Source: Desulfococcaceae bacterium
GTDB taxonomy: Bacteria > Desulfobacterota > Desulfobacteria > Desulfobacterales > Desulfosalsimonadaceae
NCBI GenBank assembly: GCA_030145385.1
Contig: JAQYVU010000007.1
Location: 17,930-81,929, forward strand
Direction: 5' to 3'
DNA length: 64,000 bases
Shown here: piece after piece, positions 1-51,011 of the stretch
How the letters are laid out: every line of letters begins with the position of its first letter
Numbering within the stretch: position 1 is the first letter of the stretch
Program-made: the position numbers and the translations under genes
The notes under the pieces: model-generated
The model's input: only the letters and a program-made list of their open reading frames with translations
Database searches by the model: none
Told to the model about the DNA's origin: nothing

Positions 1-1
1 A

Positions 2-3000
2 TGTGTCCGTAAACTGGAAAGTGATACTGTGGCCGGATGTCAGCCCGATGATGCTGTCCCCAAATTCATTGCCCCCGGCATACTTGAAGATAAACTGGGC
101 ATCTGTCGCATCCGCGGTAATGGAGATGGTATCGTTTCCTGCACCGCCGGCAATATTGACGGTGTTGCCAGTGGCGGAAGCCACCCCCAGGCTGATATTT
201 ATATTATCGTTACCGGTGCCGCCGCTCAGGGTGATGTTGTTGTTGTTAAACGTTTCCCCGCTTACGAAAAGGCTCAGGGTATCACTGCCGGACCCGCCGG
301 TCATCAGGACATCATTGGAACTTATGAGCGCTGTGGCCGATACGGTCGTCGAGCTGCCTGATGCACCAGCAAGGGCTGAAGCAGCAGCGGATGCTGAAAT
401 ATGGAGCGTCAGCAGATCATCACCGGAACCACCGTCCATGGTAATTTGGTTATTAACAATGGAGGCCTGGGCACTGGCTGAAGCGCTTGCAAGGCTTGAT
501 GCTGAAGCACTTGCAAAGGCGGATGCGGTTGCCTGTAAAGTCAGGTCAAGGGTGTCACTCCCCCCGCCGCCGGTCATATCGACTGTGTTATTATTGACCT
601 GCGCAGACATGCTGACATCGGCAGACGCGCTGGTTACAGAACCTAAGGCGGTTGACGGAACTGCTGTTGCCGATCCCTGCGCTGCAGCGTTTAAGAGGGC
701 CGTGAGCGTATCGTTGCCGCCGCCGCCGCTCATGCTGATATCATTTAAGTTTATATTTGCAGAGCCGGATGCCAAAGCATACAAATAACCGCTTTCACCT
801 GAGGCCAGGGCTTTTGCCGAGGCATCGGCCGTAAGGCTCAACGTCAGGCTGTCCGTGCCGGTATCGGACCCGCCGAACATATCGATGTTGTTGTTTGAAA
901 CGGCTGCGTCAGCATAATACGCATAGGCATAAGCACCGGTATCCCCTATTGCCGTGGCCACCACATCAGCCATTGCCGACAGATGGGCGTAAAAAGTGTC
1001 GTCGCCGGCCCCGCCGGTCATGGTGACAACATTGCTGCTCACAGAGACATAAGCGCCGTAATAGCAACTGGCGTCGGCGCTCCCGTATTCCGCGGATGCA
1101 AATCCATTAATCGATGCATCTGCCTGGAGATCCAGGGACAGGGTGTCGTTACCCGTGCCGCCGTCCATGAAAATATTATTGGAACTGTTGTAGGCACAAG
1201 CCGTGTAGTAGCCAACGGTCACATCCGCATCCCCGCCAATCCCGCTTTCGGACCCGGCAATGGCAATCCCGGTTTCTTTTACCGATACCGACAGCAAGGC
1301 TGAGAGCGTATCATCACCGGACCCGCCGGTCATGGAAATATCGTTATTGCTCACGATAGCTGAAACAGTAGAATAGGCCACATACCCTGAGGCATCTCCT
1401 GCTTCAGCAGACATGAGACCATATATCGATAAATCGGCAGACAGGGTCAAATCAAGCGTATCATTTCCTGCGCCGCCATACATATTGATATCATTAGTGT
1501 AATTGTTAGCCGTTACAGAAGAATAATACGCAACAGTCATCCAGGCATCATTACTCGAACCGCCGGCAATCGCCTCCCCTTTTATACTTAACGATGCGCC
1601 AAGCAGGGCGGTGAGGGTATCGCTGCCGTCCCCGCCGCTCATCGTGATGGTGTTGTTGGAAACAGTCGCATAAGTATAGTAGTATCCGACTGTCAGGGTC
1701 ACAGAATTATCTGTCGCAGAGCCCAGACCGTAAACCGATGCATCGGCTGAAAGCGTCAATGAGAGCGTGTCGGTCCCGATGCCGCCGTCCATCTTAATAA
1801 TGTTGCTATTGACGTTTGCGCTTACAGTTGAATAAGCAGCGGTCAAATCAGCGTCCCCTGTTCCTTCTGCCTTTGCGATTGCCGAAGACTTTGCCGATGC
1901 TGCCAAGAGGGCCGTGAGGGTGTCGTTCCCGTCCCCCCCGGTCATGGTAATGGTATTAATGTTCACGTTAGCACTTGCACAGTAATAACCCCAGGCATCT
2001 GCATCCCCGGATGTCGCAAACGCAGAGGCTTTTGCCGCTGCATCGGCAGAAAGTGTCAGGGTCAATGTATCATCCCCGGCATCACCCCCCATATCAACAG
2101 CATTGCTGTTCACATAGGCCGATACAGAGCTTGCGTATACTGTCGCCGCCTCCCCGTTTGCAATGGCGGAATTCCTGGCCGTTGCCGCCAAAAGTGCCGT
2201 AAGTGTGTCATTGCCGTCCCCGCCGCTCATGGTGATTGTATTATCGTCGACATAGGCTGTAGCGTAATAAGCTGTAGCGTTTGCAGATCCGCCTGATGCC
2301 GAAGCATAGGCCGAGGCATTTGCCGACAGCGTCAGGGCCAGGGTATCGGCACCGTCACCGCCATCCATAAAAATTGTGTTGCTGCTTACATAAGCATAGG
2401 CATAGTCGGCAAAGGCATCCACGCTTTGGCTGCCTGTTCCTTTGGCAATAATGGAACTCTTTGCCGTGGCTGCCAGTAGCAGGTTAAGGGAATCATTGCC
2501 CGCACCACCGGTCATGGAAATCGTGTTATCATCAACATATGCGTAAGCATAAGAGGCAGTTGCCTCAGCACCACCGGAAACCGCAGAAGCTGAAGCAAAG
2601 TTGTAGGCGTCCGCCGACAGGGTCAGGGACAGGCTGTCGCTTCCGTCACCGCCAAACATGTTCACATTATTGCTGGTCACGTAAACATATGCATAAACAG
2701 CCTCAGCCACGGCAGCCTCAGAACCGCTTGCCGAGCCCTTGGCAATGGCTGTATTTCTTCCCGACGCTGCCAGAAGGGCTGTCATTGTATCGTTGCCATC
2801 GCCGCCGGTCATGCTGATGGTGTTATTGCAAACAAATGCATATGCATAATAAGCGATCGCATAGGCGTCACCAGAAGACGCAGCTTCAGAAGCCAGTACA
2901 TATAGATCCGCGTCTGCCGACAGGGTCAGTGATAATGTGTCACTCCCTTCCCCGCCAAACATGTTCACGATGTTATCCCCCACTGTGGCATATGCCGTAT

Positions 3001-5530
3001 AAGCGGCTGCATAAGCAGCAGTGTCATAAGTGGTAGCAGAGGCAGTCAGCGACGTGCCTTTGGCGATTGCCGTTATTCTGGCACTGGCTGCCAGAAGTGC
3101 CGTAAGCGTGTCATTGCCCGTACCGCCGCTTATGGTAACCGTATTGCTGTCAACCGTGGCATACGCATAATACGCAGAGGCAGAAGCCTCACCGCCGGAT
3201 GCTGAGATAAACATAGATGCAGTCGCAGACATTGTAAGGGACAGGGTGTCGGTGCCGCTGCCGCCATCCATATAAACATCGTTACTGTACACATACCCAT
3301 AGGCATAACTGCCAAATGCATCCACATTTTGGCTGCCGGTTCCATTGGCAATGGCTGTAATTTTTGCCGAGGCCGCCAAAAGGGCTTTAAGCGTATCATT
3401 GCCGGTTCCGCCCGTCATTGAAACAGAGTTAGAATACGCATAAGCATACGCATAATCACCGGAAGCGCTTGCGCCACCTGAGACGGCGGCTGCCTTCGCA
3501 TAAAGCTCCGCCTCTACCGACAAGGTCAGGGACAGGGTATCACTCCCGTCACCCCCAAACATATCCACAACATTGCTGTATATAGAATTGTAAGCATAAT
3601 ATGCACTTGCATACGCAACAGTGGTCGAGGAGTCTAACGCCCCAGTGGCGATGGCAGACACTCCACCGGAGGCTGCCAGGAGTGCCGTAAGTTCATCATT
3701 GCCGGCACCGCCGGTCATGCTGATGGTATTACAATAAATTTCGGCATAAGCAGAATAGCCGGTGGCTTCGGCACCTCCGGAAACTGCTGAAGCCAAAGCA
3801 TAAACGTCTGCATCTGCAGACAAGGTCAGGGTCAGGGTGTCATCCCCGGAACCGCCAAACATGTCCACATCATTACTGCTCACATAGACATAAGCATAAT
3901 AGGCAGTTGCAGAGGCCGCATCGGTAGTGCTGGAAGAGGCTTTGGCAATACCTGAGACTTTACCACTGGCCGATAAAATGGCTGTCAGGGTATCATTGCC
4001 CGTGCCGCCGTCCATAACAATCGTGTTGCTGCTTACTGTTGCATAGGCATAATAGGCATAGAGATAGGCGCCGCCGGACTCTGCCGAGGCCAGTACATAC
4101 ATTTCCGCGTCTGCCGCCAAGGTCAGTGACAGGGTGTCATCTCCTGAACTGCCGTACATGTTTATCGCATTGCTGTCTACAACTGCATATACCGTATAAC
4201 CCGTGCCATAAGCAGCATCGGAAGTGCTTGACGAGCCTTTGGCAATATTTGACATCTTTCCCGTTGCTGCCAGAAGCGCCGAAAGGGTGTCATTGCCGGT
4301 GCCGCCGATCATGGAAACCGTATTACTTTCAACAGTTGCATAGGCATAATACGCATACACCGTGGCTTCAGGGCCGGAGGCAGACGCATAGGCCCCTGCG
4401 TTGGCCGACAGCGTCAGGGACATGGTATCGGTTCCTGCGCCGCCGTCCATAAAGATGTTATTATTATTTACATCAGCACTGGCATATGAGGCATACGCAT
4501 AATTTAAGGAGGAAGACCCCGTGCCGACGGCAATGGCCGAAACCTTTGCCGAGGCCGCCAGTAGGGCTGCAAGATTATCGTTGCCCGCACCACCGGTCAT
4601 GGAAATCGAGTTGCTGCTCACTTGGGCATCGGCATAATAAGCATAGGCAGAAGCCCCGGAATCACCAGCGGAAGTTGCTGAGACCTGTGCATGCGCATAA
4701 AGGTCCGCATTCGCTGACAGGGTCAGGGACAACGTATCACTTCCGTCACCGCCGAACATGTTCACGGTATTGTTGTCCACATTCGCTTCAGCGGAATATG
4801 CAGATGCATCCGCAGCATATCCCGTTGCACTGCTTGTCCCGGCTTTGGCCGTTCCCGAAGCCTTTGCTGTTGCTGCCAACAAGGCTGAGAGGGTGTCGTT
4901 GCCGGTGCCGCCGTCCAGGGTGATTGCGTTGTGCGTAATTGATGCAGTGGCACTGTAGCCTGTGGCATCCGCAGAACCTGAACTCGTGGCCGATGCCAGG
5001 GCATAGGCAGTTGCATCTGCGGAAAGAGTCAGGGACAACGTATCACTGCCGTCACCGCCGAACATGGCAATGTCATTGTTGCTAAGGAGGGCTTCGGCCG
5101 TACTTGCCTTGGCAGCAGCAGAAGATGATGTGACATCTGTATGAGAAGCAAGTGCCTTAACTGAGAGTTGGGCTGTGAGCGTATCATTGCCGGCACCGCC
5201 GGTCATGGTAATGATGTTGCCCATGTCGATGGTGGTGGCTGTACTGGTAAAAGTACCACTCCTAAAAACATGGCCGATATTAGCCCGGGCGGCAGCAGAA
5301 AATCCCGTGGATTGATCCGAGGCCGTCATGGCAAGATTGAGTATGTCATCCCCGGTCCCCCCGTCCATGTTGATGGCATTCCAGTCGACATTTTGAGGAT
5401 CGATATCAAGGGAAAGCGTGTCGTTGCAGGCGCCGCCGGTCATATTGATCTGGTTTTGTGCGACAGCCCCTGTGGCGGAAATTTTTATTGATATATTATC
5501 GCTGCTCAGTCCGCCGTGCGCGCTGATCGC
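2..5530 (-). repeat. Coding tandem array of ~36 units of ~145-155 bp (~50 aa). Each unit carries one RTX-like nonapeptide (GGxGxDTL). Two unit types alternate, giving a super-repeat of ~295-300 bp.
   Basis: On the + strand the motif recurs as ccgccggtcatgg (1011-1023, 1323-1335, and near 2505, 3710, 4597, 5200), which encodes ..MTGG... These copies interleave with ccgccgtccat / ccgccaaacatg (near 1160, 1785, 2360, 2652, 2952, 3265, 3852, 4005, 4443, 4752, 5057), which encode ..MDGG../..MFGG... Confidence 0.8.
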
Positions 5531-8155
5531 GTTGCTTAAAACATTGGCCCCGGCCAGGGTGACGCCGATGGTGTCTCCTTCGTTTTCACCGTACGGACAT
5601 TCGGGCCCGCCGTTGAGATTGAAGGTGTTGCCGGAAACATTGCCGCTTGCCGACAATGTAACGCCGAGGGTGTCTGACCAGCCCCGTCCCTCAATATCTA
5701 TGTTGTAGCCGTTAAAATCACCGGTAAAGCTGCCGAGGTTTACCAGAAGGGTGTCCGGCCCCGAGTCTCCGGTAAGGGTCGTGCTGGTGCCGGTTACCGA
5801 GGTAATTGTCTGTTCAGTCCCTGCCGCCACATCATCATCAATAATGGTGCCGGATGCGGAAGCAGAAGTGATCCTCGCCCCCCCGCTGGAGTTGGAAAGG
5901 GTGACAATAAAATTGTTTGAATATTCACCACATGTATCGCCGGCTACCTGCACCGTTATTGTCTTGCTCGTTTCTCCGGCTGCAAAGGTCACCGTACCGC
6001 CGGGCAGAGCGCCGCCAAAATCATCGGCATCGGCGGGATGGTCGCCGCTGCCGGCGACACTCCAGTCCACTGTATGGGTTTTGCCTGTGTCACCATCTCT
6101 GGTCACGGTAAAAGTAAAATCCGTGAGGCCGGCATCACCCTCGACATTATTGGCTGAGTCTGCGGAGATGGAAATATCTGTGTATATCCTTACGTCATCG
6201 TTAATTATTTGTGCGAATGCGGATTCCGTGGTGATATTTGCGCCTTGCGACGCATTGGCCAGGGTAACGGTAAAGCCTTCGGTACTCTCTACTCTTGAAT
6301 CGCCTGCCACCTGCACCGTAATGGTTTGGGTCGTTTCACCGGCTGCAAAGGTCACCGTACCGTCGGGCAAATCGCCCCCGAAGTCATCGGCGTTGGCAGG
6401 ATGGTCGCCGCTGCCGGCTACACTCCAGTCCACCGTATGGGTTGTGTCCAGGTCACCGGCTCTGGTCACGGTAAACGTATAATCCGTCAGCCCGGCATCA
6501 CCCTCGACATGATCAGCTGAGTCTGCAAAGATGGAAATTTCTGCGTCATCATTGATTATCGCTTCATCATCATTGATTATTTGTGCGGTTGCAAATTCTG
6601 TGGTGATATTTGCGCCTGCCGAAGCATTGGACAGTGCAATTGAAAAACCTTCGTTATTCTCGATTATTGAATCGCCTGCCACCTGCACCGTAATGGTCTG
6701 GGTTGTCTCGCCGGCTGCAAAAGTCACCGTACCGCCGGGCAGAGCGCCGCCAAAATCATCGGCATCGGCGGGATGGTCGCCGCTGCCTGCTACACTCCAG
6801 TCCACTGTATGGGCTGTGCTTGTGTCACCGTCTCTGGTCACGGTAAAAGTAAAATCCGTCAGCCCCGCATCACCCTCAACATTATTGGCTGAGTCTGCGG
6901 AAATGGAGATCGCTGCGTCATCATTATTTATCGCTACGTCATCGTTAATTATTTGTGCGAATGCGGATCCCGTGGTGATATTTGCGCCAGCCGAAGCATT
7001 GGACAGGGTAATTGTAAAGTCTTCGTTACTCTCTACTGTTGAATCGCCTGCCACCTGCACCGTAATGGTCTGGGTTGTCTCGCCGGCTGCAAAGGTCACC
7101 GTACCGCCGGGCAGAGCGCCACCGAAATCATCGGCGTCGGCGGGATAGTCGCCGCTGCCGGCGACACTCCAGTCCACTGTATGGGTGGTGCTTGTGTCAC
7201 CGTCTCTGCTCACAGTAAAGGTATAAACCGTCAGGTCGGCATCACCCTCGACATTAATGGCTGAGTCTGCGGAAATGAAGATCTCTGCGTCATCACTGTT
7301 TATCTCTGCGTCATCATTGATTATTTGTGCGAATGCGGATCCCGTGGTGATATTTGCGCCTTGCGAAGCATTGGACAGGGTAATTGTAAAGCCTTCGTCA
7401 CTCTCTACGGTTGAATCGCCGGCCACCTGCACCGTAATGGTCTGGGTTGTCTCGCCGGCTGCAAAGGTCACCGTACCGCCGGGCAGAGCGCCACCGAAAT
7501 CATCGGCGTCAGCTGGATGGTCACCGCTGCCGGCTACACTCCAGTCCACCGTAGGGGTTGTTTCCAGACCACCATTCCTGGTCACGGTAAAGGTAATATC
7601 AGTCAATCCTGAGTTCCCCTCTGCCTGACTGACCGAGTCCGTGGAAAGCGCAATAGTTGACAGGAAATATGGTAAATCCGGATCATCGCTGCCGGAGCGG
7701 CCATCAGGCTGGAAATATGGTAAATCCGGATCATCGCTGCCAGGCTTGTTTTCATTGCCTGCGTTTTGCATCCCTCCATTTTCATCTAAACCGAGATCCC
7801 AGAGTGTTTCATCGAGCCATGGCAGATCAGCAGTATCATTTATGGGCGCCCAGTCAAAGCTGTTGTTTCCCCCCAGTAAAGATTCCAGATCATCCATGGA
7901 GGCATTGAATGCTTCCTCATGGGAAAAACCGTTGATCAGAGATTGATTATAGGTATGTAATACTGATGTACGCATATCAGCAAACTGTTGCGGTGTTTTA
8001 CCAAACAGGTCCGCTAATGTTGCCTCTATGGCATTTAACGTAGTGATTAACGCCACTTTAGCGTTGGCACCTTCTGCCAATGCAGCATCATACGTTTCAT
8101 TTGCAATGCTCATTAAACCTTCGATGATATGTTCTACAGAATGTCCATCAGACAT
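2..8155 (-). CDS. Giant repetitive secreted/surface protein, N-terminal 2718 codons only (3' end lies beyond the window start). It has a ~150-aa unique N-terminus, 5 Calx-beta modules, then ~36 RTX-like GGxGxD units. Probable type I secretion substrate/adhesin.
   Basis: ATG at 8155-8153 with GAGGG 7 nt upstream. Hand translation of the minus frame (codon starts = 1 mod 3) gives MSDGHSVEHIIEGLMSIANE..., then ..VDWSVAGSGDHPADADDFGGALPGGTVTFAAGETTQTITVQVAGDSTVE.. (Calx-beta signature) and ..ITMTGGAGNDTLTAQLS... The frame is still open at the edge (..GDSIIGLTSGHSITFQFTD). The ORF track lists no minus ORF in this frame, so there is no in-frame stop between 8155 and 2. The track evidently drops ORFs that lack a stop inside the window. 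Confidence 0.85.
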   Translation of the reverse strand, partial: MSDGHSVEHIIEGLMSIANETYDAALAEGANAKVALITTLNAIEATLADLFGKTPQQFADMRTSVLHTYNQSLINGFSHEEAFNASMDDLESLLGGNNSFDWAPINDTADLPWLDETLWDLGLDENGGMQNAGNENKPGSDDPDLPYFQPDGRSGSDDPDLPYFLSTIALSTDSVSQAEGNSGLTDITFTVTRNGGLETTPTVDWSVAGSGDHPADADDFGGALPGGTVTFAAGETTQTITVQVAGDSTVESDEGFTITLSNASQGANITTGSAFAQIINDDAEINSDDAEIFISADSAINVEGDADLTVYTFTVSRDGDTSTTHTVDWSVAGSGDYPADADDFGGALPGGTVTFAAGETTQTITVQVAGDSTVESNEDFTITLSNASAGANITTGSAFAQIINDDVAINNDDAAISISADSANNVEGDAGLTDFTFTVTRDGDTSTAHTVDWSVAGSGDHPADADDFGGALPGGTVTFAAGETTQTITVQVAGDSIIENNEGFSIALSNASAGANITTEFATAQIINDDEAIINDDAEISIFADSADHVEGDAGLTDYTFTVTRAGDLDTTHTVDWSVAGSGDHPANADDFGGDLPDGTVTFAAGETTQTITVQVAGDSRVESTEGFTVTLANASQGANITTESAFAQIINDDVRIYTDISISADSANNVEGDAGLTDFTFTVTRDGDTGKTHTVDWSVAGSGDHPADADDFGGALPGGTVTFAAGETSKTITVQVAGDTCGEYSNNFIVTLSNSSGGARITSASASGTIIDDDVAAGTEQTITSVTGTSTTLTGDSGPDTLLVNLGSFTGDFNGYNIDIEGRGWSDTLGVTLSASGNVSGNTFNLNGGPECPYGENEGDTIGVTLAGANVLSNAISAHGGLSSDNISIKISATGAVAQNQINMTGGACNDTLSLDIDPQNVDWNAINMDGGTGDDILNLAMTASDQSTGFSAAARANIGHVFRSGTFTSTATTIDMGNIITMTGGAGNDTLTAQLSVKALASHTDVTSSSAAAKASTAEALLSNNDIAMFGGDGSDTLSLTLSADATAYALASATSSGSADATGYSATASITHNAITLDGGTGNDTLSALLAATAKASGTAKAGTSSATGYAADASAYSAEANVDNNTVNMFGGDGSDTLSLTLSANADLYAHAQVSATSAGDSGASAYAYYADAQVSSNSISMTGGAGNDNLAALLAASAKVSAIAVGTGSSSLNYAYASYASADVNNNNIFMDGGAGTDTMSLTLSANAGAYASASGPEATVYAYYAYATVESNTVSMIGGTGNDTLSALLAATGKMSNIAKGSSSTSDAAYGTGYTVYAVVDSNAINMYGSSGDDTLSLTLAADAEMYVLASAESGGAYLYAYYAYATVSSNTIVMDGGTGNDTLTAILSASGKVSGIAKASSSTTDAASATAYYAYVYVSSNDVDMFGGSGDDTLTLTLSADADVYALASAVSGGAEATGYSAYAEIYCNTISMTGGAGNDELTALLAASGGVSAIATGALDSSTTVAYASAYYAYNSIYSNVVDMFGGDGSDTLSLTLSVEAELYAKAAAVSGGASASGDYAYAYAYSNSVSMTGGTGNDTLKALLAASAKITAIANGTGSQNVDAFGSYAYGYVYSNDVYMDGGSGTDTLSLTMSATASMFISASGGEASASAYYAYATVDSNTVTISGGTGNDTLTALLAASARITAIAKGTSLTASATTYDTAAYAAAYTAYATVGDNIVNMFGGEGSDTLSLTLSADADLYVLASEAASSGDAYAIAYYAYAFVCNNTISMTGGDGNDTMTALLAASGRNTAIAKGSASGSEAAVAEAVYAYVYVTSNNVNMFGGDGSDSLSLTLSADAYNFASASAVSGGAEATASYAYAYVDDNTISMTGGAGNDSLNLLLAATAKSSIIAKGTGSQSVDAFADYAYAYVSSNTIFMDGGDGADTLALTLSANASAYASASGGSANATAYYATAYVDDNTITMSGGDGNDTLTALLAATARNSAIANGEAATVYASSVSAYVNSNAVDMGGDAGDDTLTLTLSADAAAKASAFATSGDADAWGYYCASANVNINTITMTGGDGNDTLTALLAASAKSSAIAKAEGTGDADLTAAYSTVSANVNSNIIKMDGGIGTDTLSLTLSADASVYGLGSATDNSVTLTVGYYYTYATVSNNTITMSGGDGSDTLTALLGASLSIKGEAIAGGSSNDAWMTVAYYSSVTANNYTNDINMYGGAGNDTLDLTLSADLSIYGLMSAEAGDASGYVAYSTVSAIVSNNDISMTGGSGDDTLSALLSVSVKETGIAIAGSESGIGGDADVTVGYYTACAYNSSNNIFMDGGTGNDTLSLDLQADASINGFASAEYGSADASCYYGAYVSVSSNVVTMTGGAGDDTFYAHLSAMADVVATAIGDTGAYAYAYYADAAVSNNNIDMFGGSDTGTDSLTLSLTADASAKALASGESGYLYALASGSANINLNDISMSGGGGNDTLTALLNAAAQGSATAVPSTALGSVTSASADVSMSAQVNNNTVDMTGGGGSDTLDLTLQATASAFASASASSLASASASAQASIVNNQITMDGGSGDDLLTLHISASAAASALAGASGSSTTVSATALISSNDVLMTGGSGSDTLSLFVSGETFNNNNITLSGGTGNDNINISLGVASATGNTVNIAGGAGNDTISITADATDAQFIFKYAGGNEFGDSIIGLTSGHSITFQFTDT
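5831..7660 (-). repeat. Five tandem Calx-beta modules (~124 aa each; 372-bp period, 363 bp for the last) within the giant CDS
   Basis: The string cgcc(t/g)gc(c/t)acctgcacc recurs at 5938, 6301, 6673, 7045 and 7417. Each module encodes ..TVDWSVAGSGD(H/Y)PA(D/N)ADDFGG.LP.GTVTFAAGET(T/S)(Q/K)TITVQVAGD.. and ends in ..IINDD/IIDDD. Confidence 0.8.
7663..7741 (-). repeat. Tandem 48-nt duplication (31-nt identical core) encoding GSDDPDLPYF twice, between the N-terminal domain and the first Calx-beta module
   Basis: ggaaatatggtaaatccggatcatcgctgcc occurs at 7663-7693 and again at 7711-7741. Confidence 0.9.
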
Positions 8156-8264
8156 TTTTCAACCCTCGATTTCCGTTATAATGAATCCATTTAGTGATAT
8201 CGATGACAGAGTAAAAATTCTCGGTAATAACTAACTCAGTCCATGACAGCTTTTAATGATGATA

Positions 8265-9527
8265 CTAAAGTTTGCCCATTGTTTCCAGCAGGGCATTGAT
8301 GTTGATTTTCACATCGGTTTTCGCGGATGCCGCATCGCTCTTGGCGTTGATAAGATTTGTTTCACCGGCAAGAACATCCAGAAGAGAACGTCTGCCAAGC
8401 TTGCGTTCTTTGCGTGCAAGTTCCAGAAACTGCTCAAGAATGTCTACCTGGCTATTCAAAAAACTTGAATTTGTGCGGGCGGTATCCACGTTGGCCCATG
8501 AGTTACGAACCTGTTCTTCAACCTGTTTTTTTAAATAATCACGGTTTTTAACAGCCGCCGCATAATCTTCTCTGGCTGACCGCACTTTATTGGTAGCGGT
8601 TAATCCCAGGTTAAAGGAATAAGAGAGTTCCACCTTGGCAACATAATCTTCTCTTCTCGCCTCAATGCCGCCGACTTCATCTTTCACGTCCGCCTGAAGA
8701 ACACCATTGATTACGGGAAGATAACCGTCAGCCTTGCTGGCGGAAAGAAGCGCATCGGCCTCCTTAACGGCAAAGTCCGCAACTTTCAGATTGGGATTTG
8801 ACTTCATGGCAACCTGCACCGCTTCGTCAACAGTTGCCGGCAGAGGCTGAGGAGAAGAATCTGTCGTAGTCAGGGCAGAGATTTCATCTGGCAAGCGGCC
8901 GAAAACTCTTTGCACCCTGTTTTTGGCCCGTTCGTAAACCCCTCTGGCACTGACGAGCCTTGCCTGCGCTCCCAGAAGTTGTGATTTTGACTGGAGTACG
9001 TCGGTTGAATATCCCTGGCCACGGGTAATACGGGTATTTTCCATCTCAGTCTGATGCTTGATGTTATTTTCTGACTGCTGGGCGTACTGAATGATATCTT
9101 CGGCATTTTTAAGTTCGAGATAGGCTACATTACCTTCCAGTATCAACTCCTGCCTGACCCGTTCCTTATCGGCAGAATATCTCAAATATTCGTTTCGTGC
9201 CTTCCGCAACCTTGCGTTGGTAAGGCCAAAATCCCAGAGAAGCTGCGTTATGGAAGCATCTAACTCTTTTGGATTTTGCGACAAATCATCAACATCTTCG
9301 AGTCTGTATTCGGAAGTGCCGGCAGAGGCCGTTAAATCAAGCTTGGGAAACCAGCCCCCAAGGGCTACGCGTATCTTATTTTCGGCTGAGACTTCCCTTG
9401 CCTGGGCTTCCTGGAGGCGTTCATGACTTTTTAGCATATTTGAAATTGCTTCATCCAGTTCCTCAGCCATGGCAGGGGAACCGAGCAGTAGGCTAATACA
9501 AACCATACCCATCAAAATCTTTTTCAT
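8265..9527 (-). CDS. TolC-family outer membrane efflux/type I secretion protein
   Basis: 420 aa with signal peptide MKKILMGMVCISLLLGSPAMA. It has the two-fold internal repeat of long helical segments typical of outer-membrane efflux (OEP/TolC) proteins. It lies directly upstream of the giant repeat protein on the same strand (109-nt gap). Confidence 0.8.
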   Translation of the reverse strand: MKKILMGMVCISLLLGSPAMAEELDEAISNMLKSHERLQEAQAREVSAENKIRVALGGWFPKLDLTASAGTSEYRLEDVDDLSQNPKELDASITQLLWDFGLTNARLRKARNEYLRYSADKERVRQELILEGNVAYLELKNAEDIIQYAQQSENNIKHQTEMENTRITRGQGYSTDVLQSKSQLLGAQARLVSARGVYERAKNRVQRVFGRLPDEISALTTTDSSPQPLPATVDEAVQVAMKSNPNLKVADFAVKEADALLSASKADGYLPVINGVLQADVKDEVGGIEARREDYVAKVELSYSFNLGLTATNKVRSAREDYAAAVKNRDYLKKQVEEQVRNSWANVDTARTNSSFLNSQVDILEQFLELARKERKLGRRSLLDVLAGETNLINAKSDAASAKTDVKININALLETMGKL

Positions 9528-9629
9528 ATATCCATCTCCTTTTAAGCCCGATCAAGTAAAATTAGTCGTAAATTCAAGTCTCACTTATCGCTGACAGCTC
9601 AGGATAAGGCTTTAGCTTTTTAGCAGAGT

Positions 9630-9658
9630 AGCATATGCCCAAATAACTACTATGTCAA
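9630..9658 (-). promoter_or_regulatory. Candidate sigma-70 promoter for the tolC-like/giant-protein operon
   Basis: The minus strand reads TTGACA-17 nt-TATGCT, about 100 nt upstream of the ATG at 9527. Confidence 0.3.
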
Positions 9659-10366
9659 GAACTATATTGATACAATACATTGAATTGACTCGATAGAGGG
9701 TAGGACGGAAAACAAGAAATATATTTTTTTAAGGGTTTGTTGTTTCAATAAAGCATGGCAAAGTCTCATTCATTCTGTTTTTTGACAAACGCCACCCTAC
9801 GCCCCAGAAAAAAAACTCTCTACCGGTGAATGTGCGCTGTAATATCTGGGAACAAAGATTATTCCAAAATAAGTAAATTACTAAAAACTGAGATCAATCT
9901 ATTCCAGCAGAAAACGAGGTGAGCAATACGAGAAAACCGAGGATTTCACGATTCGGAATACAGTATTGCGCTGCTCAGAAATACCTCAGCTTGGCCCCGG
10001 CAGTCCTCGCCTTTTAAATCTGAATCCCATTGCACCTTGCAATATCAATCCTTGGCAAGTTAACCCAAATAGTAAATCAATATATTGTGGTTGAAAAAAT
10101 TCAGAACAACCCCGGATTTCCTGAGTATACATCATTATTTTTATCAGCTTTGTAACCTTCAATACGTCTGCAATCCAAACGAACCCCCCATTCCTATTTT
10201 ATGGGGTACATTACATTCTTCGTCACTGCGGAGTAGCAAGCTATGCTTCATTTCTCAGGATTTTTACGCCTTGCCAGCTTGATGTAATTGGTAATACTTT
10301 TTTCCGCCCATCAGAACCCTTTTTCCCAATTATTAAACATTGGTACAAATCGAAAAAATCACTTTA

Positions 10367-10395
10367 TTGACATAAGACCATCCCTTAAATATAAA
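10367..10395 (+). promoter_or_regulatory. Candidate sigma-70 promoter for the 10468-14615 operon
   Basis: TTGACA (10367-10372), a 17-nt spacer, then TATAAA (10390-10395), ~75 nt upstream of the ATG at 10468. Confidence 0.35.
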
Positions 10396-10467
10396 CTATT
10401 AAATACAAATTATAATTTAACGTAAACCATTTCAGCAATTAACATTACCTGATAGTGAGAATCTGCC

Positions 10468-19298: not shown

Positions 19299-19925
19299 TT
19301 ATTTCTGGTGCCGGGGTATTTTCTTGTTCAATATAAAATCACAATGATTTTTTCCATAAGCAATGGTGTTTTCCCAGCAATCCCCTCTGTCAAATGAAAA
19401 ATCGGGAAATGCCTGAGGAAAAAATTCTTTATCCACATCACAAATCAGACTCGTCAATTCAGGCGTACCGGCTTCCAGGAAAAAATCATACACCACACAC
19501 CGTTTTATAATGTAATGGCAGGTGGTTTCATTCAATGTGATGTATTCTCTGACATTAAATTTCGCTTCATCATTTTTAAACATGAAATCATTAAACGCCA
19601 TTAAACGCGGCATGCCTGACAAATCTGCCAGATTCAGGGAATTGAAAAGTTTTCTCACTGCATTGCAACCAATGGGAACCAGCAGGCGTCTCATTACATC
19701 AAACGCTTTTTGTTTTCCAATTTTTTCCCCAAGTTTCAAGTACAATCCCGATGCCATGGCAAGGCGTTTGACATACGCAGCTTCCTGCCTGCAAACAGAG
19801 TCCGATGCCCATCGGGTTTGTCTGAATATTTTATTTTTTTCCAACAGCGACATGCCGACAAGCACCGGCAACGCAGCACCGACTTCAGATCTTAAAGTAG
19901 AGATAATGTGTATGATCATTGTCAT
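19299..19925 (-). CDS. L-2-amino-thiazoline-4-carboxylic acid (ATC) hydrolase-like family protein
   Basis: 208 aa. The C-terminal pattern ..RCVVYDFFLEAGTPELTSLICDVDKEFF....FDRGDCWENTIAYGKNHCDFIL resembles the PF14196-type signature (C..f.e.G.peL...C..D......R...la.G...CDF). Confidence 0.45.
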   Translation of the reverse strand: MTMIIHIISTLRSEVGAALPVLVGMSLLEKNKIFRQTRWASDSVCRQEAAYVKRLAMASGLYLKLGEKIGKQKAFDVMRRLLVPIGCNAVRKLFNSLNLADLSGMPRLMAFNDFMFKNDEAKFNVREYITLNETTCHYIIKRCVVYDFFLEAGTPELTSLICDVDKEFFPQAFPDFSFDRGDCWENTIAYGKNHCDFILNKKIPRHQK

Positions 19926-45940: not shown

Positions 45941-46918
45941 GGCATCCTCCTGAAATATTAAATATTGAGTCCAAAACAGGGTTATTTTAAAATATTTTGT
46001 CTTTTATTCCAAGTCAAAAGCCTGGCCTGACCCTATTGTATTCTCATCAACAATAAATTATTATTATTGAATGTTTATTATTTGTATGGATATTTTCTTT
46101 TAAGAATGAGTAAATGTGCGTTTTCCCGGTCGTTTGAAAATCGAAAATATTCTCTACTTTTCTTTGGCGGGCAAAGCAAAGTAGCAAAAGAAACCCGCCC
46201 TGCAGCATGTTCCCTCGATCCGCAGGTTTCCATGGCGGGATCAAAAACTCGATCAATCTTTGGCCCGGAAAGTTTATTTTATTTCTTGTTCACCTTTTTG
46301 CCTCTCAAAGACTTCAGCTTTGCCGCCGCTCAGACAGTTTGCTCCCTTGTCCCATGGAAACCAGCTTCTCTCGGCTATGCTGCAATGGGATTCCTCCGGC
46401 GTTCAAACTGTGGCACAAATGCTGTGAAATAAAAGTGGCATTTTGCAAGGTTGTTGAATTCCCCCTTTTGCTCCTCCGGAACACTGGCAACCAGTTGCCC
46501 GTGCCACCCCAAGACTTTTTGCCCACTCATTTTGCAATTTGCTAACAAAGTCTCTGATCAATACTCTTTGCTATGTATGGATACAAAATAAATGATGAAA
46601 TACTTTGTCGGAGTGCTTGCGCCACTTGAGATCCGTTGGTTTTCAAACGCGCTCTGCGCGGATAAATGGCAAGGAAACTATTTATTTCGTCAAACCCAAA
46701 CCCGGTACGGCAACATAAGAATAATGATAAAAATTGTTCGCCGAAAGGGTTTGCCCATTGCGATGCAGCCCTGAACCGAGGTTTGTGTGGAACAAGGGAG
46801 ACACTGTTTGAGCTGCGTTTACTCCGACAGTGGATTAACAAAAATGATTTGACCGAAGCTTTGGGAAAAGCCCTATCGAGGGCTATTGCCGTCAGCTCTA
46901 AAAATTATGAGACCTCCG

Positions 46919-47239
46919 TTATTCTGTTGAAACTAATTTGAGTCCCACTATTCCGGATACAATGAGAAGCAAACAGACAACCCTGAGGATGTCTCGTGAT
47001 TCACTAAATAGGATCATACCCAATATTGCTACTCCAACCGCACCAACGCCAGTCCATACGGCGTATGCTGTGCCTACTGGAATAGTCTTCATAGCCAATG
47101 ATAATAACCAAACACTAATGACCATACCTGAGACGGTCAGTAATGATGGAATAAGCTTTGTAAATCCAAAAGTATATTTTAATCCAATGGCCCATCCGCA
47201 TTCAAACAAGCCAGCAATTATCAAATAAACCCATGACAT
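46919..47239 (-). CDS. sugE: SMR-family exporter, SugE/Gdx type (guanidinium/quaternary ammonium efflux)
   Basis: 106 aa, four TM helices, [22 protein letters not shown]... with the conserved membrane Glu. GGGAG Shine-Dalgarno upstream. Confidence 0.85.
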
Positions 47240-47269
47240 GTTTCTACTCCCTGACCTGATTTTGTTGCC

Positions 47270-47660
47270 TCATCTCGCGGTAGGAACGCCGGTTACCCGG
47301 CACCCCCCGCACAGACCCGGACGTTCGGTTTTCCCGCATCCGATTCCTCGGTTGTACTCGCTTTCGCGCAAATCATTAGCATTATGTAAATACCCGATGT
47401 CGTTTGGTCGATAGTGGGAGATTGGGTTTAGCAATCCCGAGTCGCTCGATGGCCAATTAATTGCCTTCCAGGCAAAGCTTTTTCGCTTTCCACCTCGTCG
47501 GTTTAGCCATTTGAATGCACTTTCAATCGCCCAACTGTAAAAACGCCATAATGACCTTAAGTTGCCGACCACACTGTAATAATTGTAATGTCCGCGCAGC
47601 CGTCGATTCAACTCCGTTATGAATTTAATCCCCTTTAAAGTAGAAATATGGTAATATCAC
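47270..47660 (-). mobile_element. Group II intron reverse transcriptase/maturase relic (domain X and C-terminal tail only; RT domain missing)
   Basis: ..GIKFITELNRRLRGHYNYYSVVGNLRSLWRFYSWAIESAFKWLNRRGGKRKSF.W.. matches the maturase RGWxNYY region. The tail ..CGKTERPGLCGGCRVTGVPTAR is typical of intron ORF ends. The frame is closed by a TGA near 47668, so only ~130 codons survive. Confidence 0.6.
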
Positions 47661-47904
47661 GCAGTATCTCAGGCATTTGTTTTAATGCCTGTAAATATGT
47701 TTTCAATTTATCTTTCATCTGATGTCTAACTATGCGTAACCGACGCGAGGAGCTTAGTGACAAGCGTTCGGTTTACGCATTTGTTAGTCGAGATATATTA
47801 TTTGTTGTATTTCTTCCTACGTGAGCCTTCATTTCAACCATCACTTAAAGACAATAAGTAACGCAAACGGCGTTTCAATTGGTTTTTTTTCGATACCGCA
47901 GTGA

Positions 47905-48321
47905 CTATTTCTCCTCAATCGAAATCTTGAACTCAACAGTTCCCAACCCTCCCAGTTCGAGACCAGGATCTGTGCATCTAAATCCAGCCATAAAAGCGGT
48001 TATATCACCCTTTTGGTACATGCGATCTAACAACGATGTACTCTTTTCATAAAGTGGCTGAATCGCCCCCAGGCACAAGGGCGCCGTACTCTCCTGTGCG
48101 TTGATCTCTACAGCTCTATCCAACACATACTTCTGCCCAACTTGTAGCCCGGCATAACAATACTTGGAGCTGACCACTTCGGCGACCAATCGATATTTAT
48201 CGACCGCTTCCGTTGCGTTTAAAATAGTCTTTTCCATTTCGGGAGTCACTTTTGCCATATCCTCCTCTGTCATACTGAGAATCTCGACCGCGATTGCCTT
48301 GAGCCCTTCGTCTTTGATCAT
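47905..48321 (-). CDS. Hypothetical protein (possibly TIGR04076-like)
   Basis: 138 aa. ..KYCYAGLQVGQKYVL......APLCLGAIQPL.......FRCTDPGLELGGLGTVEFKISIE weakly recalls the TIGR04076 pattern. Confidence 0.4.
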   Translation of the reverse strand: MIKDEGLKAIAVEILSMTEEDMAKVTPEMEKTILNATEAVDKYRLVAEVVSSKYCYAGLQVGQKYVLDRAVEINAQESTAPLCLGAIQPLYEKSTSLLDRMYQKGDITAFMAGFRCTDPGLELGGLGTVEFKISIEEK

Positions 48322-48741
48322 GTCACGCCTCCTGTTACGGTTTGTTTATGACGACGTTTTATCTAATATATTACGACTAACATTAGTTATTCAACAGACC
48401 GGCTTCTTTTTGTCCAGAAACCGAATATTTTGATAAATTTTGGTAATATTACCAAAAAAGCACCAAATTATCAAAAACATAATAATTTAATGTATATCAA
48501 ATTGTTATTCCGATTTTGGTTTTTTGCTAAAAAATGAACATAGTTCAAATTGGTCGTTTTTTGTTCCAATTAATGCACTTCAAGAGAGAAACCATTGAAT
48601 TTTACTTTTCAATTAACAGCACGAGATTGCATACCATATATTGTGCTTGAGATTTGTTAAAGTACAACCAAATTAGATGATAATGATTTTTATAAATTCA
48701 AGAATGGAGATAAAACCGACAGTATTCCAGATTTTTTTTGA

Positions 48742-48942
48742 TGCGTGGACTATCGATAAAAACAGACAACATTCCCGCAACGGCCGCCAGTGCACATTGT
48801 GATAAACTTTACGGGATTTTTAAAAATCAAACATCCCACATATCGTGGTTGAATTTCCATAATATTCTCGAATCGCAGGTTGAAAATTATCTGACATTTG
48901 TTGGCCTGATCACAACTTTATTGATTTCCGCTACCCCAAGAT
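48742..48942 (+). repeat. Direct repeat, copy 1 (135 bp identical to 59520-59654, plus ~55 bp of diverged extension)
   Basis: 48752-48886 is base-for-base identical to 59520-59654 (checked by eye). Homology resumes at gatcacaactt..atttccg.taccccaagat. Confidence 0.9.
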
Positions 48943-49254
48943 ATGGAAAAATTGCCTTATTGAATAAACCGGCATTAGCACTGAATTCGGTTGGTATGTT
49001 GCACAGATGGCCAGAATTTTACGGCGAGCACAAGCTATTGCAAGATGCAATGAGGAGGAGAGTTTTGATGGTGAGCACTATCTTTGTCTCACCAAAGTTT
49101 TATTTCTTGACATAATCGGAGATTGATTCAACCCGATCTATAGCGCAAAAGTCTTGTTTCAACACAACGTATTGATATTAATTATCATATAGGTAAATAT
49201 TAAACATTATTATCCAGGTGATTCCCTATGTTCAATGCATGCCCTGCCTAAAAA

Positions 49255-50260
49255 CAATATGACATTGACGAACCGCGCAATCCGAATACGACGCCTAACT
49301 TCCAATGCACGTAGATCATTTTGAAGACCTGGAGATGGCTTAGGATAATCGCTACCAAAGTCAGTATGGATTTTTCAGACCTTATGTCCGGGACATGATT
49401 TACCGGTATCTGAACTGCGGGGCCCTGCACCTAAAATTTGCCCGGGTGAGATGCCTTGATTGCGGCCATGAGTATCTTTTGCCGTTTTTCCTGCAAGCGC
49501 CGTCATTTCTGCCCCTCCTGCCACCAGAAAAAAGTCATCGAGTTCGGTGAATGGATGTGCGAGGAGGTCTTGAAACATTTGCCACATCGTCAATGGGAGT
49601 ACTCCATCCCCAAACAGCTTCGCGTATTTAATTGGTCTCTGAAATCAACAGCCTCTATGGGCGTGGATATCTACTATGACCATCGCCTGCTGCTTGCCGA
49701 GCTTTCCCTGTGTGCTTGGAAAGTCTTATCCACATATCTGAAAACCAGTGTGAGATAAGATGACACGATTCCCGGCGGCGTAATCGCGGCCCAGATCTTC
49801 GGCGATTTTCAGAATTTTAATCCCCATCTGCACATTATCGCAACCGATGGCTGTTTTTATGAAAACGGCCTGTCGGCGTGCAACGCACGGACAGGCCTTT
49901 TCATCAAGGGGCCGCAACCCGTTGCAAGGGAGTTGGAGGATTCATTTCGCCGGGAGGTCTTTGCCTGCTCAAAAAAGAGGGAATGATCACCGATCTTGTC
50001 ATCGATAATATGATGTGCCAGCATCACAGCAGCTTCAACGTCTATTGCGACAAGACCCTCTGGCCAGACAATGAAGAGGGACTGGAAAATCTGGCCCGAT
50101 AAATTATCCAGCGTCATTTTCATCCGAGCGGATGACTTATATCCCGGCCTCTGAAACAAAAACCGGGACGGCCAGAGTCATTTATCATTCCAAGAATGAA
50201 CACAGCTTTTGCATTCCTGCCCGAAAGCCATCGCACAATTTTTTCAGAAGAATACAAAAA
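49255..50260 (+). mobile_element. IS91-family (Y2/rolling-circle) transposase pseudogene: multiple frameshifts and stops, 3' truncated
   Basis: The pieces lie in three frames: EPRNPNTTPNFQC / HVDHFEDLEMA*DNRYQSQYGFFRPYVRDMIYRYLNCG..ARVRCLDCGHEYLLPF / SCKRRHFCPSCHQKKVIEFGEW...HRQWEYSIPKQLR / ..PGGVIAAQIFGDFQNFNPHLHIIATDGCFYENG / ..ITDLVIDNMMCQHHSSFNVYCDKTLWPDNEEGLENLAR*. These are the Zn-binding and Y2-transposase motifs of IS91-like elements. Confidence 0.7.
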
Positions 50261-50405
50261 CCGAACGGCAAAATTCAGTACAAAGAAAACTATCGCTTTT
50301 CAGGACAGAAACATTGATATGATTTAAAGCTGAGAGAGTTTTCAGTTCTAATGAAATGAGGATAATGGCAGAAAAAGATAATCAATTCCATTTAAAACCG
50401 CTTTT

Positions 50406-50995: not shown

Positions 50996-51011
50996 TGGCA
51001 TGCAAAATGCA
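50996..51011 (+). promoter_or_regulatory. Sigma-54-like -24/-12 element (also part of a palindrome) upstream of the ABC/eut operon
   Basis: TGGCATGCAAAATGCA has GG and GC at the canonical 12-nt register and lies 117 nt before the ATG at 51128. It is also the palindrome CATGCAaaaTGCATG, so it could equally be an operator. Confidence 0.3.

Follow-up and report, generated by a model that had tools for sequence, protein, structure and literature searches.

The left end of the window, as we call the whole 64-kb stretch of DNA analysed here, carries on its minus strand a real and nearly complete gene for a giant protein. The encoded protein is about 270 kDa and roughly 2,800 residues in full and very acidic, and it is predicted to be a secreted, calcium-binding surface protein. 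It belongs to a very rare family with a conserved gene order, in which a TolC-family gene upstream would provide the outer-membrane component of the giant's export system. The explanation that best covers the observations as a whole, and that we consider quite probable, is an acidic giant exported by type I secretion (T1SS), including a sulfation step that would precede export and is suggested by the operons of relatives.

A nearly complete giant gene at the window edge

Translation of the minus strand across window positions 2–8155 gave 2,718 codons with zero stops, in agreement with a sequence-only reading of this DNA that had claimed a frame of more than 2,700 codons, open from the ATG at 8155 to the left edge. 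The other five frames over the same 8.1 kb contain 73–171 stops each, and their longest open run is 261 codons. The probability of finding no stop, computed from the gene's own base composition, is about 1e-51. The start codon (ATG, 8155–8153, minus strand) is preceded by a 7-nt spacer and the ribosome-binding site GAGGG at 8167–8163, also as that reading had it. The site lies in the intergenic spacer (8156..8264, minus strand) between the TolC gene and the giant gene, and no terminator-like site was found between the two. The same reading had pointed out that the gene is missing from the list of open reading frames, in which only plus-strand shadow frames appear; this proved correct, as frames that cross an edge go unlisted.

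In the full-length relatives L005 and P0020, 74 and 83 residues, respectively, remain downstream of the position of the window edge. Almost the whole giant gene is therefore inside the window and, by homology, the missing C-terminal part should comprise about 75–85 residues. The earlier estimate that at least 8.1 kb lies N-terminal to the secretion signal stands in that the C-terminal module is cut by the edge, but just about 80 residues are out of view. Elsewhere in the 64-kb window, Rfam detected no RNA genes, and the ORF-poor stretch at 46–51 kb is therefore not an rRNA operon.

Domain organization of the giant

All features of the gene are on the minus strand and are described here from the N- to the C-terminus. 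The protein begins with a conserved domain (aa 1–96; 7868..8155) that AF2 predicts to be a four-helix bundle, with helices at residues 4–27, 32–51, 55–74 and 79–96 and pLDDT of about 80–89. The domain is also conserved in P0020, P0122 and L005, and the N-termini of L085, L088, L090 and L091 align to it in BLASTP; it matched no Pfam family and had no PDB neighbour in Foldseek (none at E 0.001 or better). It is followed by an acidic, Asp/Pro/Gly-rich linker (aa 97–165; 7661..7867) that is predicted to be disordered, with pLDDT below 50 over most of its length. An equivalent low-complexity linker was found in all relatives. The non-repetitive N-terminus is thus about 165 aa long, close to the 150 aa or so first estimated.

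The next segment consists of five tandem Calx-beta domains of about 124 aa each (aa ~166–790; 5786..7660), the number that the sequence-only reading had given. Pfam PF03160 matched in five stretches with 150.6 bits (cutoff 27; E 2.3e-44), and the five copies form DNA repeat family D1, with a period of 363–372 nt and 72–87% identity. A transition region of irregular GxxGxD-type units of about 25 aa (aa ~791–1024; 5084..5785), delimited from the translation and a motif map, shows partial matches to the profile of repeat alignment A1. It leads into sixteen super-repeats of about 100 aa (aa 1025–2613; 317..5083), which were defined by alignment A1, its profile and AF2. Short units of about 25 aa follow (aa 2614–2687; 95..316), recognised by motifs spaced 25 aa apart at aa 2620, 2645 and 2670, in a region that aligns with its equivalent in P0020.

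The last 31 residues in the window (2..94) are the start of a conserved C-terminal module (FIFKYAG...GLTSGHS...), cut by the edge and identified by alignment to relatives. The module aligns with P0020 up to residue 3115 of 3198 and also with L005, and is conserved in P0020, P0121, P0122, P0124 and L005. No Pfam or NCBIfam family matches it, and NCBIfam gives no known T1SS C-terminal target domain for P0020. This module is likely to be the site of the type I secretion signal.

The repeat body

The repeats total about 1,900 aa, in some 37 units of about 50 aa with units of about 25 aa at both ends; about 70% of the giant is of a repeat type recognised by no domain library. Each super-repeat is made up of an A unit and a B unit of about 50 aa each; in every unit, a single GGxGxD(T)L turn is accompanied by a stretch rich in Ala, Ser and Tyr. 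The A1 profile gave 16 full-length matches to the giant. The repeat body is composed of 19.6% Ala, 14.3% Ser, 10.3% Thr and 6.6% Tyr. Examples of Tyr-bearing repeat peptides are ...SGGAEATGYSAYAEI... and ...AYYAYATV..., and the C-terminal module of the family carries LYYDADG.

The protein had been described as RTX-like, with dozens of GGxGxD units. The count is borne out by 34 strict motifs (38–40 by relaxed patterns), but the likeness to RTX proteins holds for the motif only and not for its arrangement. The motifs are spaced 45–57 aa apart in the body and 25 aa apart at both ends, never in tandem, and therefore do not form a tandem array of 9-aa RTX nonapeptides. HemolysinCabind (PF00353) scored 15.3 bits on the whole giant, below the cutoff of 23; on a lone 401-aa segment it reached 34.6 bits through four isolated matches of about 12 positions.

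In the case of aa 1426–1826, AF2 returned an all-beta model with a pLDDT of 93.2 and a pTM of 0.91, a confidence that is possibly inflated because the input alignment had just 9 rows, all of them paralogous repeats. Foldseek found no match to this model in the PDB at E 0.001 or better, and the best TM-score was 0.22. The weak matches are all beta-solenoids, with the CyaA RTX domain first. The strand pattern and the nature of these matches suggest a solenoid-like repeat body. Its GGxGxD turns would bind Ca2+ outside the cell, where the repeat region would fold into a wide, flat, all-beta, solenoid-like body. With one turn per unit, the predicted Ca2+ sites would lie in one row along one edge; the classical RTX beta-roll has two rows. 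The Calx-beta domains and the N-terminal domain may serve as a stalk or anchor. A predicted wide all-beta repeat that lacks a solved counterpart would extend Ca2+-dependent solenoids beyond the 18-residue RTX roll.

Relatives, operon order and probable secretion route

A repeat-profile search of 1.84 billion representative proteins yielded 57 relatives, among which just four (P0020, P0121, P0122 and P0125) match A1 nearly end to end. P0020 is 42% identical to the giant at 92% coverage and has the same architecture, and the L005 and L090 giants are likewise full-length relatives that align collinearly. The rare TolC-giant-TPR-sulfotransferase family consists of P0020, P0121/L090, L005, P0122 and L086. 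Its traits are the N-terminal domain, Calx-beta domains, A/B super-repeats of about 100 aa, the FIFKYAG...LYYDADG C-terminal module and a TolC gene upstream. The window giant displays all of these, the C-terminal module being represented by its first 31 aa.

The TolC-family gene noted earlier directly upstream on the same strand was verified. It encodes an outer-membrane channel of 420 aa (8265..9527, minus strand), lies 109 nt upstream of the giant gene and matches Pfam OEP in two stretches with 168.6 bits. Its best NCBIfam match is TIGR01844 (type_I_sec_TolC), at 207.6 bits against a cutoff of 225. Over its full length, the protein shares 52% identity with the TolC at the head of the L005 operon. 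We looked up the five closest TolC orthologs (P0179, P0180, P0181, P0182, which is the L005 TolC, and P0186), and in each case the next gene encodes a giant whose N-terminal domain is the same. The giant family is always accompanied by its own TolC.

Three complete homologous operons were found (L001, L005 and L090), each with genes, in this order, for TolC, the giant, a TPR-sulfotransferase (TPR-ST), an ABC protein (560 aa) and a HlyD-type MFP. The L001 MFP scored 416 bits with TIGR01843 (cutoff 209). The best matches of the L001 ABC are the T1SS models LssB, HlyB and PrtD; its 560 aa align from model position ~140–144 of LssB/HlyB, and it is thus without the N-terminal domain. Two conserved genes of about 335 aa, beside the L001 and L005 operons, show sub-threshold similarity to Peptidase_U32 and no PDB sequence match.

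ABC and MFP genes of a T1SS were sought near the giant, as the sequence-only reading had suggested. Neither these nor a sulfotransferase gene occurs within the 64-kb window, and the ABC and MFP genes most likely lie just past its left edge, since they are downstream of the giant in L001, L005 and L090. The secretion route and the proposed sulfation step accordingly rest on synteny in relatives that are 40–64% identical. The giant is acidic (pI 4.05) and has 8 Cys among its 2,718 residues, and an acidic, Cys-poor composition is typical of T1SS substrates. Its N-terminus shows no Sec-type signal by inspection and is predicted by AF2 to be a soluble helical bundle. The proposal of a type I-secreted giant is supported by this composition and by the synteny of the ABC and MFP genes in the relatives. 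Synthesized in the cytoplasm and carrying no Sec signal, the giant would pass through ABC-MFP-TolC with its C-terminus leading.

A sulfotransferase gene in the operons of relatives

In the three Desulfobacterota operons (L001, L005 and L090), the TPR-ST gene is flanked by the genes for the giant and the ABC protein. It also directly follows a repeat-protein gene in L003, L004, L007 and L009. Where downstream DNA is available, it usually separates the substrate gene from that for the ABC protein. The TPR-ST orthologs are 54–78% identical. A profile of the ST domain matched TPST1 (3e-15) and TPST2 (1e-13), with the next family at 1.6e-8; the closest solved relatives are animal protein-tyrosine sulfotransferases, whose E-values are better by about 7 orders of magnitude. 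The 5'-PSB loop GMPRSGTTL is conserved, and an invariant Glu is aligned to the CGEE motif.

Given a TPST-like domain and repeats with 6.6% Tyr, sulfation before export is put forward as a hypothesis. A cytoplasmic TPR-ST of the protein-tyrosine-sulfotransferase type, known here from the operons of relatives, would probably modify the Tyr-rich repeats of the unfolded giant before its export. That the giant is the substrate of a dedicated TPR-ST and is exported by the T1SS as a heavily sulfated, Ca2+-stabilised beta-solenoid is a tentative and, in our estimate, rather unlikely proposition.

It is plausible, though not what we would expect, that the giant is exported unmodified and that the TPR-ST has some other target (polysaccharide, lipid or a different protein) or serves the substrate mainly as a TPR chaperone or adaptor. 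TPR-sulfotransferases of the general type are widespread (447 matches) and are mostly found away from T1SS genes. However, the T1SS-linked enzymes form a specific clade: all TPR-STs at 50% identity or above (L003–L010) are linked to a T1SS ABC/MFP pair, a GGxGxD repeat protein or both, and those at 43% or below have no such link, save for weak ABC/MFP-like matches in L061. The position of the gene, between substrate and ABC genes in three operons and immediately after the repeat-protein gene in L003, L004, L007 and L009, also argues against an unrelated target, as does the distance of about 7 orders of magnitude by which protein-tyrosine sulfotransferases are the nearest solved relatives.

The Tyr content of the repeats bears on both readings. 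It is 4.9–10.8% in family members with an adjacent TPR-ST vs 1.1% and 0.5% in two members without one, which speaks for modification of the repeats. In the alphaproteobacterial L007 and L009, however, a TPR-ST is located beside repeat proteins of ordinary Tyr content (2.4–2.6%), and P0122 and P0124 belong to the family with no adjacent TPR-ST; both observations favour unmodified export. As a marker of the sulfotransferase, Tyr-richness holds in the Desulfobacterota-type family and fails in L007 and L009.

The raxX-raxSTAB system of Xanthomonas couples tyrosine sulfation to type I secretion (PMC6637879). As in raxX-raxSTAB, the TPST-like gene of the relatives directly adjoins T1SS ABC/MFP genes and the substrate gene, and the substrate is Tyr-rich, a likeness seen in the genes of the relatives. 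The systems differ in that the relatives' substrate is a structural protein of about 2,000–3,200 aa rather than a 60-residue peptide precursor, the enzyme carries an N-terminal TPR domain of about 300 aa, and the ABC is without a C39 peptidase domain. The small leader-containing peptide substrate and C39-peptidase ABC of raxX-raxSTAB are thus both absent from the operons of the relatives.

If pre-export sulfation of the giant is true, it would add to RaxX a second, independently assembled case in which sulfation and type I secretion are coupled, and would place this coupling in anaerobic sulfate-reducer lineages and marine Alphaproteobacteria. In the literature searched, no TPR-sulfotransferase was described in connection with a T1SS giant. 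To our knowledge, RaxST of Xanthomonas is essentially the one system from which tyrosine sulfation of bacterial proteins is known, and we know of no earlier report of a structural or surface protein that is sulfated in a bacterium. A conserved sulfotransferase-T1SS operon whose giant substrate is Tyr-rich makes a broader occurrence of bacterial tyrosine sulfation directly testable.

Comparison with Lap-type adhesins

In an ordinary LapA/RTX-type adhesin, an N-terminal retention module plugged into TolC would keep the protein at the cell surface until a LapG/BTLCP-type protease, controlled by c-di-GMP (LapD/DvhD type), released it; Pseudomonas and Desulfovibrio vulgaris have such systems. For the giant, this is improbable. 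It is a T1SS-type substrate with an adjacent TolC gene, and a PilZ-domain gene upstream of TolC in L090 and L091 hints at c-di-GMP input in one relative. Lap/Dvh systems for large adhesins are reported from sulfate reducers, including D. vulgaris (PMC13090378), and these share with the giant a large type I-secreted surface protein and the same phylum-level group. However, the giant differs from them in its N-terminus and repeats, and in having no nearby DvhG/LapG or DvhD/LapD genes.

The N-terminal region of the giant is predicted to be a four-helix bundle with a disordered linker, whereas the retention module of LapA is small, globular and rich in beta structure. No LapG cleavage site ([TAP]AA[GV]) is present in the first 250 aa, and the giant thus has neither the LapG site nor the retention module of LapA-type adhesins. 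The LapG/BTLCP-type protease that the sequence-only reading thought worth seeking nearby was not found: neither LapG (Peptidase_C93) nor LapD appeared in Pfam scans of 28 window ORFs, and neither a LapG/BTLCP-type protease nor LapD was present among the genes called in L001, L002, L003 and L090. The repeats themselves are neither BIg nor classical RTX.

Probable role of the giant and other known systems

The most probable role of the giant is at the surface, in the matrix or in adhesion, in a bacterium of the sulfate-reducer type (Desulfobacterota). Like the RTX proteins and RTX adhesins secreted by type I systems (HlyA, CyaA, LapA, SiiE and Marinomonas MpIBP), it is very large, acidic and poor in Cys, and has a GGxGxD(x)L turn of the Ca2+-binding type. 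The adjoining TolC gene, the ABC and HlyD-family MFP of relatives and the likely C-terminal signal region are further points of likeness, and the predicted beta-solenoid-like body would, as in RTX proteins, take on its fold with Ca2+ after leaving the cell. Among the weak Foldseek matches is PDB 3p4g, which we take to be the Ca2+-bound beta-helix of MpIBP region IV; in our own reading, the predicted single row of Ca2+ turns most resembles this beta-helix. Unlike RTX proteins, the giant has one nonapeptide per unit of about 50 aa, the other 40 or so residues of which form two long Ala/Ser/Tyr-rich strands, and no solved structure superposes on its repeats. Transporters of many giant RTX proteins, and RaxB, have an N-terminal C39 or C39-like domain, whereas the ABC of the relatives is without a C39-like domain.

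Hundreds of secreted or surface giants with Calx-beta domains were found, an example of the kind being a Ca2+-dependent adhesin family of Pseudoalteromonas tunicata (PMC12153261). The window giant resembles them in its five tandem Calx-beta domains, which are 40–59% identical to those in many large bacterial proteins, and by itself it is unremarkable as a type I-secreted Calx-beta protein. However, the shared part is the Calx-beta segment only, about 22% of the window giant; the VCBS, peptidase, classical RTX and other parts of such proteins are unrelated to its 50-aa repeats.

Ice-binding and curli-type proteins typically have flat beta-sheets rich in Ala, Ser, Thr and Tyr, and the repeat body has such a composition in regular strands. 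The weak Foldseek list holds curli CsgA and bacterial ice-binding/antifreeze beta-helices, and Pfam gave a faint match to AFP_2 (E 0.24). An ice-binding, mineral-binding or amyloid-like surface in place of an adhesin or matrix protein is nonetheless very improbable, as these structural matches are far from significant (TM-score at most 0.22) and nothing in the context hints at a cold environment or a mineral function. Such a role would concern the giant after secretion and leaves the secretion mechanism aside.

Integrity of the repeat array

It is scarcely credible that the open frame was produced by faulty assembly, with repeats joined wrongly or inflated in number (the sequence-only reading had raised the caveat of an artefact), or is a dead gene open by chance: the gene is highly repetitive, and contigs of relatives often break inside the equivalent gene, but its repeat copies are just 60–87% identical as DNA, which argues against collapse or duplication and allows the copies to be placed unambiguously, the giant is collinear end to end with independently assembled relatives, the ribosome-binding site and start keep their position relative to TolC, and a stop-free frame has the probability of about 1e-51 given above. 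The broken contigs of relatives indicate that such genes are hard to assemble. Giant genes of this kind get lost both because ORF callers drop frames that cross an edge and because assemblies break inside them.

A stop-free giant gene at the window edge

The evidence supports a type I-secreted giant protein with an uncatalogued repeat fold, whose relatives have a conserved and possibly substrate-modifying sulfotransferase partner. Translation of the minus strand from the ATG at 8155 to the left edge of the window (2-8155) yielded 2,718 codons without a stop, for which the chance probability computed from the gene's own base composition is ~10^-51. The other five frames each contain 73-171 stops, and none of them stays open for more than 261 codons. 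The start is preceded by GAGGG (8167-8163) with a 7-nt spacer. Both observations agree with the sequence-only reading, as does the ORF list over 1-8155, where only plus-strand shadow ORFs appear; the giant is missing from it because ORFs open at the end of the source are not listed. The gene has a G+C content of 53% as compared to 45% in the rest of the window, attributed here to its Ala/Gly/Ser/Thr/Asp-rich composition. The encoded protein has an overall pI of 4.05 and 8 Cys.

The giant is a Calx-beta protein by HMM. Pfam identified five such domains (150.6 bits), matching five DNA copies that recur with a period of 363-372 nt and are 72-87% identical; five modules had been read by hand. The ~150-aa non-repetitive N-terminus reported earlier was likewise confirmed, with ~165 residues free of repeats. 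AlphaFold2 predicted a four-helix bundle for residues 4-96 (pLDDT ~80-89) and, after it, an acidic linker that is disordered; neither a Pfam family nor a PDB neighbour was found for the N-terminal region.

Repeat architecture and predicted fold

Repeats occupy ~1,900 residues C-terminal of the Calx-beta domains. Two alternating unit types build this region, A (..N.I.MFGGDGSDTLSLTLSADA..YALASA.SGGA.A..YYAYA.V) and B (SNTISMTGGAGNDTLTALLAASAK.SAIAKG......YAY.YV), which together form a ~100-aa super-repeat present 16 times (16 full-length matches to the profile of the super-repeat alignment). The region comprises 19.6% Ala, 14.3% Ser, 10.3% Thr and 6.6% Tyr. The dozens of GGxGxD units claimed previously were recovered as 34 strict motifs, or 38-40 with relaxed patterns, but they do not form a tandem RTX array, being spaced 45-57 aa apart (25 aa at the two ends of the repeat region).

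The giant most plausibly works like an RTX-type substrate of a type I secretion system (T1SS). It lacks the tandem nonapeptides that define the RTX repeat family, and its HMM score for that family is borderline. HemolysinCabind scored 15.3 bits on the whole protein versus a cutoff of 23. On an isolated 401-aa segment it reached 34.6 bits through four isolated matches of ~12 positions, and there is therefore one RTX-type nonapeptide per unit rather than a tandem array.

Four super-repeats (aa 1426-1826) were modelled with AlphaFold2 from a shallow 9-row alignment of paralogous and orthologous segments. The model was all beta (mean pLDDT 93.2, pTM 0.91), with each ~50-aa unit contributing three strands of 5, ~17 and ~13 residues; the GGxGxD turn connects the first two and another turn the last two. 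Foldseek returned no PDB match at E 0.001 or better; its weak list consisted of beta-solenoids (the CyaA RTX domain, curli CsgA, ice-binding proteins, tailspikes and SufD) with TM-scores of 0.22 or below. From the model we infer that the repeats would fold into a wide body resembling a beta-solenoid, in which each coil has a single Ca2+-type turn.

C-terminal module and family

Among the best 120 database hits of the giant, all but one cover the Calx-beta part only (~22% of the query). The exception, P0020 (3,198 aa, Thermodesulfobacteriota), covers 92% at 42% identity. The last giant residue in the window aligns to P0020 residue 3115, beyond which 83 residues follow; the ortholog at locus L005, from a Desulfosudaceae MAG, has 74 residues beyond the same point. 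These alignments do not support a substantial unseen part outside the window, where the sequence-only reading put any secretion signal or anchor, and they place the window edge 31 residues into a C-terminal module. This module (FIFKYAG..GLTSGH..DANDYWIY..LYYDADG..VAQF.AD..DIT) is common to the L005 ortholog, P0020 and two further relatives, P0121 and P0122, and matched no Pfam or NCBIfam model.

The related protein P0124 (1,414 aa; L084 1868-6112) carries three copies of the module, in the form ..F.Y....GD.I.SF....LFYD..G.., with 25-aa GGxGxD units between them. The module is therefore not solely a terminal signal and can be an internal domain.

The repeat region alone, used as a query, found five proteins among 5.8 billion clusters. 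An exhaustive search of 1.84 billion representatives with the super-repeat HMM gave 57 proteins at E<=0.001, five of them at E<=1e-30, with near end-to-end profile matches in P0020, P0121, P0122 and P0125 only. The giant falls into a small, unnamed family that is recognised here by four shared features: the N-terminal domain, the A/B super-repeats, the C-terminal module and the gene order.

Gene order and secretion route

The TolC-family gene claimed directly upstream on the same strand was found at 8265-9527 (-), with 168.6 bits for Pfam OEP and type_I_sec_TolC as best NCBIfam model; its junction with the giant has no terminator-like site. Within the window, tblastn detected no sulfotransferase gene and neither of the T1SS ABC and MFP genes that the earlier reading had suggested seeking nearby, and Pfam scans of 28 window ORFs found no LapD-type gene and no LapG-type protease, also suggested. 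The remaining window genes serve ordinary metabolism and transport.

In three independently assembled relatives' loci (L001, L005 and L090), the order TolC, giant, TPR-fused sulfotransferase (TPR-ST), ABC (560 aa) and MFP is complete, and the L001 MFP scores 416 bits on TIGR01843. All five of the closest TolC orthologs looked up (47-64% identical) are directly followed by a gene starting with the giant's N-terminal domain, mostly cut by the contig end. This synteny argues for type I secretion in the family as a whole and thereby supports the earlier proposal of this route for the window's giant, whose downstream genes would lie outside the window.

The giant is unlikely to be a LapA-type adhesin, since its first 250 aa contain no di-alanine site for LapG. 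It also differs from LapA in its predicted N-terminal fold, the four-helix bundle, and in having no LapG or LapD found near it.

Upstream of TolC in the window are 940 nt of non-coding DNA (9528-10467) with a promoter-like TTGACA-17-TATGCT at 9658-9630. In one relative, the TolC gene is immediately preceded by a gene for a GerE-type regulator and one for a small PilZ-domain protein (L090 501-1932, L091 1062-1412), a hint that c-di-GMP may control that lineage's operon; the window's TolC has no such equivalent upstream. Other genes are kept beside the operon in L001 (21063-23196, 2675-4219) and L005 (14923-16975, 17193-18773): two paralogous ~335-aa proteins, 50-69% identical, with sub-threshold Peptidase_U32 similarity, and a Peptidase_S8 protein, 45% identical. 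A chorismate mutase/DAHP synthase gene is next in L001. These genes, too, may belong to the system (processing? anaerobic hydroxylation?); tblastn found no match to them in the window.

A sulfotransferase partner in relatives

TPR-ST (~615 aa), encoded immediately after the giant, shares 54-78% identity across L001, L003 and L004 and is thus far better conserved than the giants. The N-terminal half of TPR-ST consists of TPRs and resembles the TPR region of O-GlcNAc transferase. The C-terminal-domain profile matched protein-tyrosine sulfotransferase 1 (3e-15, 59 bits, 230/266 profile positions) and TPST2 (1e-13), followed by the next family at 1.6e-8 and cytosolic SULT1A1 at 8e-7. The PAPS 5'-phosphosulfate loop GMPRSGTTL is invariant. 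A likewise invariant Glu aligns with the CGEE motif of the TPSTs at its second Glu, which the TPST2 structure paper reportedly describes as the catalytic base.

Using TPR-ST, 79 genomic loci were recovered. Every locus with at least 50% identity (L003-L010) has a GGxGxD repeat protein, a T1SS ABC/MFP pair or both as neighbours; at <=43% there is no such linkage, except weak hits in L061. Within the family, repeats with an adjacent TPR-ST contain 4.9-10.8% Tyr (P0020, P0121, L005, P0123), and those without contain 1.1% (P0122) and 0.5% (P0124); the window's protein has 6.6%. However, this correlation is not universal, as L007 and L009 pair TPR-ST with proteins of 2.4-2.6% Tyr. By analogy, it could be hypothesized that the giant is sulfated before export. 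The relatives' operons resemble raxX-raxSTAB of Xanthomonas, in which the gene for a tyrosylprotein sulfotransferase lies beside those for a type I system's MFP and ABC; the complete cluster has been reported solely in Xanthomonas, and the majority of raxST homologues elsewhere are unlinked to raxA or raxB (PMC6637879).

Marine Rhodospirillaceae/Thalassospiraceae MAGs (L007 6832-10890, L008 12492-14375, L009 4501-9831) carry the same TPR-ST clade (50-56% identical) alongside T1SS ABC/MFP genes; the large GGxGxD proteins that accompany it there are different ones, and their Tyr content is ordinary. Linkage of the sulfotransferase to a T1SS is therefore not confined to one phylum. Asparagine-synthase-like genes (MCG... 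N-termini, by eye) lie near TPR-ST in L008 and L010.

Other features of the window

A 5.2-kb stretch (45941-51127) has no ORF of at least 150 aa and no Rfam match. By eye, it contains short fragments resembling decayed mobile elements, namely a tail like that of a group II intron maturase ('...RGHYNYYSV...', 47270-47611, -) and IS91-type zinc-finger transposase-like pieces ('...CLDCGHEYLLPF...CPSCHQKKV...', 49395-49758, +). An intact SMR-type small membrane protein is also encoded there (46919-47239, -). The adjoining G+C-rich island (51128-59095; 56-59% over about 52-58 kb versus ~45% for the window) encodes a binding protein of the OpuAC type, an ABC ATPase and a permease with a long ORF. 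EutA comes next, with one 779-aa ORF in which the ethanolamine ammonia-lyase subunits EutB (large) and EutC (small) are fused. The island's composition suggests horizontal acquisition. Two ATC_hydrolase-family paralogues lie 43 kb apart, at 19299-19925 (-) and 63081-63569 (+), the latter preceded by a B12-binding radical SAM gene (61724-63067).
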